From: Eledone cirrhosa
Lineage: Eukaryota
DNA length: 64,000 bases
NCBI GenBank assembly: GCA_964016885.1
Contig: OZ024743.1
Coordinates: 11,346,001 to 11,410,000, forward strand
Reading direction: 5' to 3'
This document shows positions 187 to 48,185 of this stretch, piece after piece. The translations under genes and the position numbers were made by a program. The stretch's first letter is position 1. Every line of letters starts with the position of its first letter. The notes beneath the pieces were generated by a model that ran no database searches, had not been told where the DNA came from, and saw only the letters and a list, made by a program, of their open reading frames with translations.

Positions 187-586
187 ATATCACACAAAAA
201 AGAGAATCAGTGTTGCGACGAATGGAATTTATTGAACATATTTCAATCGTTTCTCTGGCGACCAGCTCGAGGCACGATCGATGTGATGATCGAACCTGAC
301 TCTGAAAATTGCAAGGTCCTCATATACGTCTTCCTAATTAGGAAAGTCTGCTTCGTAGAATCAAGACGTATCTGAGGACCTTGCGATTTTCAGAGTCAGG
401 TTCGATCATCAAATCGAATGTGCCTCGAGCTGGTCGCCAGAGAAACGGTTGTAATATGTCCAATAAATTCCATTCGTCGCAACACTGATTCTCTTTTTTT
501 TTTGTGATATCATACTCTGCTCTATGAGAGCATCGAGTGCTCAAACGGCCTACCGCATACGGACGCTATAAGTATCCAACACCAAT
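187..586 (+). mobile_element. PLE 3' terminus with inverted partial copy (hairpin + tail), family A
   Basis: Inverted arms 187-332 and 363-510. The unpaired tail 511-586 is homologous to the reverse complement of 29380-29452. (TA)n on both sides. Confidence 0.75.
365..460 (+). ncRNA. Type I hammerhead ribozyme with long stem II
   Basis: Stem I gacgtat/atatgtc, core CTGAGGA at 372-378, ~60 nt stem II, GAAA at 442-445, minimal stem III ac-ggtt-gt, cleavage triplet GTA at 451-453. Confidence 0.65.
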
Positions 587-636
587 TATATATATATATA
601 TATATATATATATATATATATATATATATATATATA

Positions 637-1638
637 TCATAATCTATAAAGCTCAGTGTGTGGTCATGCTCCTTCGTTATAGAAATCTGCGATATAGAAT
701 TTCTTCAATTGAAATTTACAATTCAGTATTCGAAATAGTTTCGATTGCGTCTTTACGCAGATAATTTTTTCAATTTCACCCACAATTACGCAAAAAATAG
801 ATAAAACTCAATATTTTACGATTTTTCTCTCTCATTTATACTGCTGAACTCTTTCTACTACCATTCAAAATCTATACAACTTCATACTGTCTGCTACTTT
901 CTCTTTCCAAGCTTGATGGTGATACTGTCCGTTCACACCACTCCCTACTGTCTTAAATTTAGAAAACACATATCCTTTATGAGGTTACTAAACCTGCTAG
1001 AAACAGCAGCTAACTCTCCCCCATATCACACCCCTCTCCACACCACTCCCTACTGTCTTAAATTTAGAAAACACATATCCTCTATGAGGTTACTAAACCT
1101 TCTAGAAACAGCAGCTAACTCTTCCCCATATCACACCCCTCCATACTGTCTTAAATTTAGAAAACATATCTTCTATGAGGTCACTAAACCTGCTAGAAAC
1201 AGCAGCTAACTCTCCCCCATATCACACCACTCCCTACTGTCTTAAATTTAGAAAACACATATCCTCTATGAGGTCACTAAACCTGCTAGAAACAACAGCT
1301 AACTCTCCCTCATATCACAACCCTCCCTACTGTCTTAAATTTAGAAAACACACAGACAACCATGCAGAACAACTCCATTGCAGCTCTGTTGTTCGGCTGG
1401 CATCGTCTACGCGCGTGTTGCGCAAGTACTGTGAAACAATAAATTTCAACACTTTTTTGCACAGAGATAATATCCATAGGCGAAACTACAATTGTCACTG
1501 CTGGCGCAGCTCATGCTTCCAGGTCTGCAATTCATTCACCCAGTGCCTGGCAGACAAAAAAGTGCTGCCATAAAATGGGTGGTGCAACCTAACTTTGGTA
1601 ACTTAATGACCCCGAGCAACGCCGGGCTTTAATGCTAG
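637..1638 (+). mobile_element. Non-autonomous Helitron
   Basis: A|TC start with tataaagct, subterminal hairpin cccg-agcaacgc-cggg at 1611-1626, CTAG|T end at 1635-1639, no TSD. Confidence 0.65.
934..1352 (+). repeat. ~92-bp tandem repeat, about 4.4 copies, derived from a dispersed repeat
   Basis: Unit tactgtcttaaatttagaaaacacatatcc...cctgctagaaacagcagctaactctccccc. Related single copies at ~30410-30470 (-), 31930-31990 (+) and 54940-55020 (-). Confidence 0.9.
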
Positions 1639-1669
1639 TATAATTATATATATATATATACACATTGAT

Positions 1670-1890
1670 TTATTATGGCTATTGGTGAGTTGTGTTACTC
1701 TAAACTAAAGTTCCACCTGCGCACTCACAGTATCACCAGTCGTGTCTGATGATTCTGTAAGTACGCAGGTGAGACTCCAAAGTAACAAGGTTCATCACTT
1801 AGCCATAATAACGAATATTTAAACTCTACTCCGGTATTGAGTTTTCATTCTTACGTCCGTCAATAATTCACGTACTCTCAGGTCTAATTA
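1670..1890 (+). mobile_element. PLE 3' terminus with hammerhead and inverted copy, family B
   Basis: Arms 1670-1739 and 1746-1811. CTGATGA at 1746-1752, ctg..cag stem, GAgAC at 1771, then GTA. Tail motif actctactccggtattgagt at 1823-1842. Confidence 0.65.
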
Positions 1891-1984
1891 TTTTATTTTA
1901 CGTTAAAAAAAACATTATATACGACAAAAAAAAACATTATAAGAAATCCCATATTTACGAACGTAAACTATATAATTGCCGATT

Positions 1985-2470
1985 TCCCAATCCCCTCTAT
2001 ATATTAGGCAATATTTATCTCTCCTAACCTCCTCATTATATCTACAAGCATGGAAATCTACACCTTTCTATATCTACATGACACTCTCTCTCCTAATTCC
2101 CCTCTCTATATCAATTACCACCAAACTATCCCCCTCTCTATATCTACCATACAACACTCTCTCTCATTCCCTCTCATTCTATCCATCACTACCAAATTCT
2201 CTCCCTCTCTATATCTATCAATACATATCTCTATCAATCCTCTCACTCAATTCATAACCACTAAACTAGCTCCCTCTCTATATCTACTACACGGAACTCT
2301 CTTCCAATCCCCCTCTCTATATCAATTTACACCAAATCCCCCCCCCCCCCTCTCTCTAAATCTACTACACGGAACTCTCTTCCAATCCCCTCTCTATATA
2401 TAATATAGAACTCTCTCTTCCAACCTTCCTCTCTATATCAATTACCACGGAACCCTCCCCCTCTCTCACA
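1985..2470 (+). repeat. Degenerate CT-rich minisatellite
   Basis: Recurring tcccctctctatatc(t/a)a..acc units. Confidence 0.75.
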
Positions 2471-2815
2471 CATATATATGCGTGCGAGTGCATGCATTTA
2501 CATGCATGTAGCTATTTGTAAATATGCTAAATAGGTATATAAATGTATATAGACGTATCTACATATATCGGTATGTACACATATATGTATGTACGTATGT
2601 ATGTAATTATGTATGTATTGTGTATGTATGTATATATGTATGTATGTATGTAGATAGGTAGGTAGGTATGTAAGCATATGCTTAAATGCGTATGTATGGG
2701 TATATAACTGAGCCTATGTGAGTGTGCCGCACATGATAAACAACTAGGGCAAAAGATAAGCGACGTCAACAATGTCGGCTAATTTGAAATTATTATAGCT
2801 AAGTTACCGAGCGAG

Positions 2816-3012
2816 GTGTGTGTGTGTGTGTGTGTGTGTGTGTGTGTGTGTGTGTGTGTGTGTGTGTGTGTGTGGGTGTGTGTGTGTGTGTGTGTGTGTG
2901 TGTGTGTGTGTGTGTGTGTGTGTGTGTGTGTGTGTGCGTCTGTGTCTGTGTCTGTGTGTGTGTGTGTGTGTGTGTGTCTGTGTGTGTGTGTGTGTGTGTG
3001 TGTGTGTGTGTG
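2816..3012. repeat. (GT)n microsatellite
   Basis: Directly visible. Confidence 0.98.
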
Positions 3013-46235: not shown

Positions 46236-47259
46236 AAAGCAATATATATATATATATATATAATATATATATATAACGTGTGTTTGTGGAACGCGTTCTG
46301 AGCTCATGCAGAGTAGCTCTAGCCCAGGGTAGATACACGTAGAGACACAGTCAAATGTTGAAGGAGATCGTATATGTGAGAAGTACGGCAAAAGTAAAAC
46401 CCGTAGTACGAAATCTCAGGTTCATCAACATGAAATTCCACACCCTCATTCAATACACTGTACATACATAGTACATACATAGATAGATAGGTAGGTAATT
46501 AGGTAGAAGGTAGGTATCTACTTGTGTGGTAGGTGGGTGAGTGTGAAGATAGGTAGGCAAGTAGATAGGTAGAATAAAGTCATTCAAATTTAGTGGAGGT
46601 ATGTTTAATAACAAGTAAAGAAAATTATTATAAGTGATTTAAATGAATGTAAAATGAAATAAGACGATGACTGAAGTGACAGGAGTAAATTCAACCATCT
46701 TTACACAGAACAAGGAGTTATTACATCAGATGTGTAACTGTAATGCACGCCATCTTGACGGTTATGATGTTAGTATACATATGTGTGTGTGTGTTTGCGT
46801 GTGTACATTCTTGTGTAAGATATATATATATATATATATAATGTGTAAATGATTATATATATGTGTGTGTGTGTTTGCGTGTGTACATTCTTGTGTAAGA
46901 TATATATATATATATATATATATATATATATATATATATATATATATATATATATAATGTGTAAATGATTATATATATGTGTGTGTATATATATATACCA
47001 TTACGAATCGACGTAATATTGTGGTAAATGATTCTTGCCCAAGATTTCACGCTATGGGATCGAACCCAGAACCTAATGTTTACAAAACAAACTGTTTTTA
47101 CCATCTGATGGATAACGTTGAAATAATTCCACCGCGTTTATTCATGGTCTTTACAGGTTAATTCTATTTTATATTTAAAGTTGCACGAAGAAATTATAAT
47201 GACGCAGTGAGTTATATACATATAGAGAGAGAGAGAGATAAATGTGTGTGTGTGTGTGT

Positions 47260-47522
47260 CTAGGTAAAATAGGTAAAAGGTAAACAGAAATAACAAAAAT
47301 AACAAAACAAACAGCACAGTACATTGAAGCAATATATTAGTTTAACGCTTGAAATAGCAGGAAGAGAGACTTAATATTTCGGACACTAGTCCTTCATCGG
47401 AAGATAGCGTTAGAAATAGAAAATAAATAGAAAGTAAAGAGTGATAGGATGAAGGACCGGGTAAAAATGAGAAAAAAGATTGGGAAGAAAAGAACCACGC
47501 GTCCGTATTCAGTCGGCTATCT
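47260..47522 (-). mobile_element. PLE 3' terminus with minimal hammerhead, family E
   Basis: Reverse complement ctt-CCGATGA-a-ggac-tagt-gtcc-GAAA-tatta-ag at ~47370-47403, preceded by a pyrimidine-rich stretch and ending in a microsatellite. Confidence 0.7.
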
Positions 47523-47574
47523 TAGAGAGAGAGGGGGGACAGAGAGAGAGGGGGGACAGAGAGAGAGGGGGGGT

Positions 47575-47745
47575 GTAAATTCCGCCCGCGGCGCCGAGTG
47601 GTTTTGACTTATGTGTTCTCAACACACAGCCGAAACCGCCTGGCGCCGCGGTCGGGATTTTACTTATATCTATACCCACTCTGCATCTCCCCATGCATTG
47701 AGTACTCCCATGGTTTGTGGTCTCCCCGGTTCAGCACCACAGACC
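47575..47745 (+). mobile_element. PLE hairpin + tail insertion, family F
   Basis: Inverted arms centred on tgtgtt-ctc-aacaca, GAAAC-cgc..gcg-GTC, tail acccactctgc..gcattgagtact..ggttc..accaca. Confidence 0.7.
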
Positions 47746-47784
47746 TCTCTCTCTCTCTCTCTCTCTCTATATATATATATATAT

Positions 47785-47975
47785 AACAAAGGAGTTGTGG
47801 TAAGGAACCAGATGGACCATAACGCAACAGAGTACTCAATACTTAGGGTAATAGGAAAATGTATGGCCCCGACGGCAGAGCTCAAGCCATTTCGACGGCT
47901 ATTTCTGGACTCAGTCCAGAAATAACCGTCGAAACGGCTTGTGAGCTCTGCCGTCGGGGTCATACATTTTCCTAT
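47785..47975 (-). mobile_element. PLE hairpin + tail insertion, family C
   Basis: Near-perfect palindrome ~47850-47975 centred on ctggactcagtccag, with the tail on the left. Confidence 0.8.
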
Positions 47976-47991
47976 ATCTATATATATATAT

Positions 47992-48185
47992 GAAAATGTT
48001 TAACCCCGACGGCGGAGCTCAAGCCGTTTCGACGGCTATTTCTGAACTGTTTTAGTCCAGAAAATAGCCGGCTTGAGCTTTGCCGTCGGGGTTAAACATT
48101 TTCCTATTACCCACTCTACTACCCTAAGTATTGAGTACTCTGGTGCGTTATGGTCCATCTGGTTCCTTACCACACTTCCTTCGTT
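47992..48185 (+). mobile_element. PLE hairpin + tail insertion, family C
   Basis: Palindrome 47992-48103 with a small deletion in the right arm. The tail matches 7693-7770. Confidence 0.8.

Follow-up and report, generated by a model that had tools for sequence, protein, structure and literature searches.

A duplicated bulged hairpin marks the two insertion ends of Hydra-clade Penelope-like elements in the Eledone cirrhosa genome

We analysed a stretch of 64,000 nucleotides (nt) of the Eledone cirrhosa genome (GenBank assembly GCA_964016885.1, contig OZ024743.1, positions 11,346,001 to 11,410,000, forward strand), referred to below as the window. A sequence-only reading of this DNA had noticed a short tail motif at eight sites. 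Our analysis showed that the motif is a bulged hairpin, that each copy in the window lies at the 3′ end of a short fold-back insertion flanked by (TA)n runs, and that it is the first of two tandem copies, which that reading had missed. By their diagnostic protein motifs and anatomy, the elements that carry it are assigned to the Hydra clade of Penelope-like elements (PLEs), and no Hydra open reading frame (ORF) lies within the window. The PLE features of the window are listed here, with hairpin 1 (H1) and hairpin 2 (H2) denoting the two copies; the family letters A-N and X2 are labels assigned in this analysis.

187..589, + strand: Hydra PLE fold-back insertion (family C1) flanked by (TA)n runs, with the inverted short arm on the left and the long arm with the tail on the right (self-match 196-499 at 89%).
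372..460, + strand: putative type I hammerhead motif read from the sequence (core CTGAGGA at 372, GAAA at 442; predicted cut after 453).
514..541, + strand: H1 of family C1 (sequence and covariance model).
1823..1842, + strand: decayed H1 of family E with the trailing RCT lost (covariance model E 0.016), in an old remnant at ~1660-1867.
3613..3708, − strand: old family G remnant, with a decayed H1 at 3676-3698 and a possible decayed H2 at ~3613-3640.
7607..7772, + strand: young family A fold-back insertion, short end left and long end right (perfect 80-nt palindrome 7610-7689; 93% to intact family A).
7698..7724, + strand: H1 of family A with one G-T wobble.
29378..29747, − strand: family C2 fold-back insertion (self-match 29463-29737).
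29422..29449, − strand: H1 of family C2 (sequence and covariance model).
41320..41695, + strand: old family N fold-back insertion (self-match; left boundary judged by eye).
41581..41655, + strand: H1 of family N with a family-wide 62-nt inner region (genome matches).
44406..44458, + strand: family A remnant truncated on both sides, with H1 at 44408-44434 (one mismatch).
47577..47745, + strand: family D fold-back insertion, with a hammerhead 3′ half at 47632 and H1 at 47678-47706.
47783..47975, − strand: family A fold-back insertion in the opposite orientation, with the 5′ strand of H1 deleted; absent from the earlier list of sites.
47992..48187, + strand: family A fold-back insertion, with H1 at 48113-48139 and the long end at 48187.
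53500..53559, + strand: family E short-end remnant, with a hammerhead 3′ half and ending at (TA)n before H1.

Both copies of the hairpin follow the consensus RCTC-[variable stem-loop]-TN-GAGY-RCT: the outer stem has 4 bp, the bulge is 2 nt long and lies on the 3′ side, the inner stem varies, and three unpaired bases are conserved. The motif pattern occurs without mismatch 63,857 times in the 3.0-Gb genome, while its reversed control occurs once; the motif is real and far above chance. The Y and the R of GAGYRCT change independently, with all four combinations observed, and in typical copies of family M the H1 ends in CCT, not RCT. A self-complementary dimer palindrome GAGYRCTC was ruled out, C-A combinations being common. 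Of 10,828 genome matches the first 100 were listed, and a separate GCTC...GAGC class predominated among these. A 58-bp satellite was also found to consist of tandem copies of family A H1 (L105-L110, L163-L166; G000:C1:14233591-14254683).

All eight sites hold the letters quoted for them at their coordinates, but the pattern under which they had been grouped fits only three as written (514, 47678 and 48113). The site at 7698 has ACTT, giving a G-T wobble, and the one at 44408 has ACTA, giving a mismatch, so the statement that ACTC and GAGT always pair is not literally true in decayed copies. The site at 29422-29449 has ATAGAGT instead of ATYGAGT, that at 1823 is without the trailing RCT, and at 41581 the inner region is 62 nt long. 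The last had been described as split by an insert. A one-off insert was ruled out, as the long loop recurs in other genome copies of family N: 39 of 39 other scored genome matches spanned most of the 171-nt query at 81-86% identity, and a strict long-loop pattern was satisfied by 5 of the 14 other copies fetched. The long inner region is a family-wide trait. Nor are the hairpin families unrelated, as had been supposed. All are ends of Hydra-clade PLEs, and the copies at 514 and 29422 can be aligned at 72%.

Upstream extension of the motif copies led to reverse transcriptase (RT) and endonuclease fragments. A genome search with the RT fragment gave 25,166 candidates, and many of the 150 that were scored lay in 784-codon open frames. 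Twenty 10-kb stretches contained 3.52-kb units in tandem and inverted arrays with (TA)n at their ends. An intact family A unit (3.52 kb, tandem) carries a hammerhead, H1 and H2, followed by the first ATG, which is codon 68 of the open frame. The ORF of 717 amino acids (aa) has a YRDD RT motif followed by a C-terminal VIYQ..YIG endonuclease motif, and a comparison by eye with the printed proteins of Hydra-1_Obim and Hydra-2_Amil showed agreement at every motif. It contains SDKTG (DKG changed to DKT) and RLRWR, a conservative variant of RWK. Inspection of the translation by eye found CNCPDRSIC (the CxCx5C linker), CNLC (CxxC) and CKH (CxH), and no CCHH pattern. The best homolog of this protein carries PF01541; Pfam and PDB profile scans of the family A ORF gave no match. 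In the family A hammerhead, stems I-III and the core could be read as a U3:A8 variant, and hammerhead 3′ halves were found in 14 families. The (TA)n targets, the tandem and inverted insertions and a tail at one end only were all observed. Other families, with flanks that do not align, continue into ORFs that share 36-54% identity with family A (main segments), which indicates that the hairpin families of the window are diverged Hydra PLEs. Copies of families C1 and C2 that continue further (L251 and L252) each contain H2 and a Hydra ORF.

Several other identities were considered. Naiad, with its selenocysteine insertion sequence (SECIS), was ruled out, the endonuclease being C-terminal, a hammerhead being present and the ORF having no in-frame stop. 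Readings as Helentron/DINE or as short interspersed nuclear elements (SINEs) were abandoned once the Hydra ORF was found. No relative was found in the viral contigs searched.

Family A is autonomous and very young: dozens of 784-codon frames among the 150 scored matches are nearly identical and stand in tandem arrays (L056-L080, e.g. G000:C1:91470500-91490499). A second large family, M, has 713-codon frames, 54% identical to family A. The family A hammerhead (L075:2879-2962) has an extended stem III with a palindromic loop, and the hammerhead core of family M looks non-canonical (CAGAAGA...GAAAG). Family I is a 1.3-kb non-coding tandem unit (L259-L260, G000:C1:130878000-130897999) that keeps the hammerhead, H1 and H2, its longest stop-free stretch being 101 aa; it is probably a non-autonomous Hydra partner.

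In full-length elements the hairpin is present twice in the non-coding leader, in the order hammerhead, 24-63 nt, H1, ~35-55 nt, H2 and ATG. The distance from the predicted hammerhead cut site to H1 was 24-63 nt across 14 families (family C5, whose locus is cut short, was left out), and by this spread we ruled out that the hammerhead fixes the insertion ends. Within this genome H2 could be identified in families A, C1, C2, I, J, K, Lf, M, X2 and E, and outside it in five loci (L138, L148, L150, L151 and L154). A pattern search for H2 gave 604 matches, against 14 for the control, the first 100 being listed. Truncated insertions lack H2, since it marks the other insertion end. Coding constraint on the motif was ruled out, for H1 precedes the ATG; moreover, the H1 lengths among the genome pattern matches (23, 25, 27, 28 and 29 nt) do not go in threes, which argues against any codon constraint.

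Pairing in H1 was counted in 27 representatives (16 from this genome and 11 from outside it) with a hand-anchored script, and also on an 11-row alignment, instead of with MAFFT, which misaligned the variable stems. Watson-Crick pairs filled 97 of 108 cells, while 10,000 shuffles had a mean of 56 and a maximum of 76; this count is inflated by the exclusion of J, K, L144 and L149 (unclear or degenerate) and by the selection by eye of the 5′ strand of each H1 between candidates, and several of the representatives are related subfamilies. The outer pair was A-T in 14, G-C in 12 and G-T in 1 of them, and the first inner pair T-A in 21, C-G in 5 and T-G in 1. The covariation score was reached by 0 of 500 shuffles, both on the 11-row alignment and on 25 distinct model-aligned hits from outside this genome, the latter alignment being fitted to the covariance model and kinship being incompletely controlled. 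Covariation in slid controls was far lower than observed. H1 is a conserved structure with compensatory changes above shuffled and slid controls, which bears out the earlier suggestion of a conserved, covarying element downstream of the hammerhead. Copies at 48113, 7698, 44408 and 1823, unseen by a covariance model that was built partly from the window copies 514, 29422 and 47678, scored E values of 1.7e-7, 4e-5, 2e-4 and 0.016. In H2, the outer stem and the first inner pair are nearly invariant. Cross-pairing between H1 and H2 competes in predicted folds; the outer pair of H1 is A-T where the H2 of the same family has GAGC, which argues for local pairing.

The insertions part from the full element at two fixed 3′ ends, a short end ~2-6 nt before H1 and a long end ~2-5 nt before H2. 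Of the family A copies, 54 end 5 nt upstream of H1 and 67 end 3 nt upstream of H2, with 14 ending elsewhere, in loci that were pattern-selected and overlap; the tail of this family, 80 nt, equals the spacing from H1 to H2. Contigs of the public runs X1 and X3 (one study, possibly of the same source as the window) break into (TA)n at these same two ends, at L075 positions 2982 and 3062. The short end lies 3 nt before H1 in families C1 (5 copies) and C2 (4 copies), 2 nt in M (8 copies) and 4 nt in B (6 copies). The long end lies 3 nt before H2 in families C1 (9 copies), C2 (2) and M (11), 5 nt in I (5), 4 nt in Lf (2), 5 nt in K, 2 nt in X2 and 4 nt in L150. The motif had been said to start near where the inverted copy stops, and in the families measured it does so within 3-5 nt.

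The two kinds of end also occur together. Among 34 pairs of outward-facing ends no more than 700 nt apart, 32 were long+short, 2 long+long and 0 short+short, as counted in the first 11.89 Mb of contig C1 from 100 H1 matches of all families and 52 family A short ends. Of 30 short-end loci, 25 could be resolved: in 7 of them the 5′ reach of the short arm was the greater, in 8 that of the long arm, and in 10 the two were equal. In the long insertions L066 and L069 the short arm is the longer one. These cases indicate that the short arm is primed separately rather than copied from the long arm. Most arms of the small fold-back insertions (L197-L226) stop 50-70 nt before H1, within hammerhead stem II. 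They thus extend past the hammerhead cut site at −25, which indicates that the template was not cut there.

The hairpin was also looked for beyond this genome. In a blind test, 24 loci from metagenome and prokaryote-genome collections were fetched by protein alone. Their 36 hammerhead-core hits were followed by the hairpin in 12 cases and ended in a simple repeat before it in another 12; 10 showed neither (two of them with decayed hairpins) and 2 were at contig ends. The chance rate of a hairpin after a hammerhead core was 25/20,000, and some of the tested rows are copies of one family. These animal-type Hydra PLEs with (TA)n flanks in prokaryote genome and metagenome-assembled genome (MAG) records (L146-L161) are probably host-animal DNA contamination. 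By eye, the hairpin is present in the published consensuses of the coral Hydra-2_Amil and the sea cucumber Hydra-2_Ajap and Hydra-1_Ajap, both copies being present in Hydra-1_Ajap, and a variant of it in that of the copepod Hydra-1_Crog; the Hydra-1_Amil consensus ends soon after the hammerhead and is uninformative (supplement of PMC8557442). The duplicated hairpin is a real, clade-wide cis element. Rfam gave no match at the motif, in the window or in an intact leader, the nearby palindrome and microsatellite hits being below the gathering score. The full-text literature contained no description of the duplicated hairpin that we could find, Repbase, Dfam and subscription journals lying outside the search. 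The hairpin, which had been called unrecognised, is therefore apparently undescribed, but the elements that carry it belong to the known Hydra clade of PLEs and share descent.

We propose a reading for these observations, namely the two copies, the H1 covariation, the fixed register to both ends, the pairing of short with long ends and the independent arm lengths. Each hairpin probably binds the RT and sets one of two internal start sites, which would explain the PLE tail. The sequence-only reading had left the choice between an RT and an endonuclease signal; the motif is best read as a putative RT-recognition signal. In this scheme the hairpins would act in the sense RNA, binding the element protein to position the RT. 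The GIY-YIG domain would nick both strands of the (TA)n target. At H1, the RT would anneal one of the nicked ends to the A/T-rich register immediately upstream of H1 and start a short complementary DNA (cDNA), and a second RT at H2 would likewise use the other nicked end to start a long cDNA, which would copy H1 and never H2. The two cDNAs would be truncated and joined head to head, giving a fold-back insertion with the tail at one end. Two protein units would serve the two target strands. More tentatively, one RNA may load a protein dimer on the two ~25-nt tandem hairpins, the dimer nicking both (TA)n strands and priming two opposite cDNAs.

Several observations, besides the inflation of the H1 pair count, weigh against this proposal. 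The long end is 8-11 nt from H2 in one locus of family E, 9 nt in six C2-type copies and 7 nt in three family I copies, and the true start is uncertain by a few bases owing to microhomology with (TA)n. The two long+long pairs were confirmed in sequence at L263 and L264, and one short+short pair was found further along among 100 listed short ends. Taken alone, H2 had 27 of 44 cells paired against a shuffle mean of 25.5, a value reached by 2,990 of 10,000 shuffles, and its inner stem is often unpaired past five pairs. The hairpins are thermodynamically weak (z −2.2 to +1.4); of 4 two-hairpin regions, 3 have a minimum-energy fold other than the two local hairpins. Dedicated searches for H2 in families B, D and G gave no real case, the family G candidate at ~3613-3640 not being confirmed in other G copies. 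No such motif was seen by eye in the published Hydra-1_Obim consensus (PMC8557442).

It is unlikely that the hairpins instead direct RNA cleavage or termination 2-6 nt upstream, with the RT starting at the resulting 3′ ends by priming of the type of long interspersed nuclear elements (LINEs). The fixed register would be explained equally well, and the conserved unpaired bases (the bulge T and the trailing RCT) could be catalytic or recruit a nuclease. However, the hairpin is only ~25 nt long and has no Rfam ribozyme match, a cut before H1 would strip the binding signal from the template, and the cDNA arms traverse the hammerhead cut site, so that the template was uncut at least there. PAc, moreover, initiates internally on uncut RNA (PMC11167929).

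An improbable alternative is a DNA signal for the GIY-YIG endonuclease, which would resolve or trim an integration intermediate or target the element's own pseudo-long terminal repeat (pLTR). Craig et al. attributed the tail to endonuclease-mediated resolution (PMC8557442), the D. virilis Penelope endonuclease needed the tail sequence for plasmid cleavage (as cited in PMC11167929), and GAGYRCT(C) is close to palindromic. However, the pairing is kept though stem sequence and loop length (8-62 nt) vary, which a reader of double-stranded DNA would not need and which makes the endonuclease option less likely. The independent Y and R of GAGYRCT break the palindrome, and on the sense strand G-T pairs exceed A-C pairs by 9 to 3, a weak difference.

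The motif sits in the 5′ leader just before the ATG, and H2 may resemble a tRNA D-arm, both of which would fit a promoter, splicing or translation leader element, or inherited sequence, with a coincidental register. Such a reading is very unlikely, for the register of 2-6 nt holds at two different ends despite unalignable flanks and proteins 36-54% identical, and both hairpins are kept in a non-coding family. Least probable of all is that only the long end is primed and the cDNA then folds back, copies itself and stops at H1 as a stop signal: it fits the near-perfect palindromes at junctions, it predicts the short+long pairing and self-priming has been proposed for Penelope (PMC3846280), but the arm-length comparison largely refutes it, since in 7 of 25 loci the short arm contains sequence that the long arm lacks, and it is the longer one in L066 and L069, short ends exist without a nearby inverted arm, and H2 would have no role.

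PLEs are the closest retroelement relatives of telomerase, and their template choice and the origin of the tail and the inverted copy have been stated as open (PMC8557442, PMC11167929). Should one RNA indeed load a protein dimer that nicks and primes both strands as suggested above, the PLE tail, the inverted 5′ copy and the non-autonomous partners would all follow from one cis signal. Any RNA given a short, portable 3′ tag would then serve a telomerase-related RT as a template for double-ended insertion. The duplicated hairpin is common to coral and sea-cucumber elements and those of this genome, and lies a fixed few bases behind each insertion end. It makes template choice experimentally tractable by mutate-and-rescue, and the very young family with many intact ORFs in this genome suits biochemistry. 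It also provides a short signature by which anonymous fold-back repeats and non-autonomous elements, in their tens of thousands, can be classified.

Other features were seen in the window. On the + strand, 3590-3665 has a tRNA-like look (D-arm, GAA anticodon arm and B-box-like word) and is antisense to the family G tail; ARAGORN found 0 genes there, and the extension is unique among the loci compared. A LINE-type RT fragment lies at 50840-51658 on the − strand (RVT_1, E 2.5e-6). A dispersed repeat of ~125 nt with high identity, partly tandem and probably a SINE, occurs at 19872-20136, 25877-26016, 37885-38268, 49953-50049 and 50514-50595.

The stem-loops at the 3′ ends of LINEs and SINEs and the R2 3′ untranslated region (UTR) are RT recognition signals that lie 5′ of the start and are copied. 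The hairpin described here is likewise a small structured cis RNA near the priming site, common to non-autonomous partners and proposed to bind the RT; unlike those signals, it lies 3′ of the start, is duplicated, and is not copied by the RT that it would position. Non-LTR retrozymes resemble family I as non-coding tandem units with a type I hammerhead that are apparently PLE-dependent (bioRxiv 10.64898/2026.07.22.740005). The family I unit is 1.3 kb with both hairpins, whereas the main text of that preprint has 0 occurrences of 'hairpin', 'stem-loop' and 'tail'.

The Hydra clade, its (TA)n targeting, hammerhead, tail and inverted copies have already been published (Craig et al. 2021, PMC8557442). 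The present elements agree with it in a single RT and GIY-YIG ORF with DKT, CxCx5C, CxxC and CxH, a hammerhead in the pLTR, (TA)n targets and tandem or inverted insertions. The word 'hairpin' has 0 occurrences in the main text of that paper. In family A, the tail is 80 nt, against 30-40 there, the unit is 3.5 kb, against generally <3 kb, and RWR for RWK and the U3:A8 hammerhead core are unlike the Hydra elements of that paper.

For the Poseidon PAc, two internal RT starts that bound the tail, extension of both strands and a predicted dimer have been reported in vitro (Frangieh et al. 2024, PMC11167929), which supports the reading proposed here. The Hydra motif is absent, by eye, from the 96 nt of PAc printed in Fig. 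S1B of that paper. In the same figure a GCC-N-GAAAG word is repeated by eye ~34 nt apart, near the tail length, and is possibly an analogous duplicated signal. In PAc the protein-binding motif was placed only within the first 172 nt of the ORF (PMC11167929). On the proposed reading, both systems would have two RNA-internal starts downstream of a hammerhead whose cutting is unneeded; in PAc these starts lie in an AC-rich stem-loop inside the ORF (PMC11167929), whereas here a duplicated hairpin lies 3′ of each putative start and outside the ORF.

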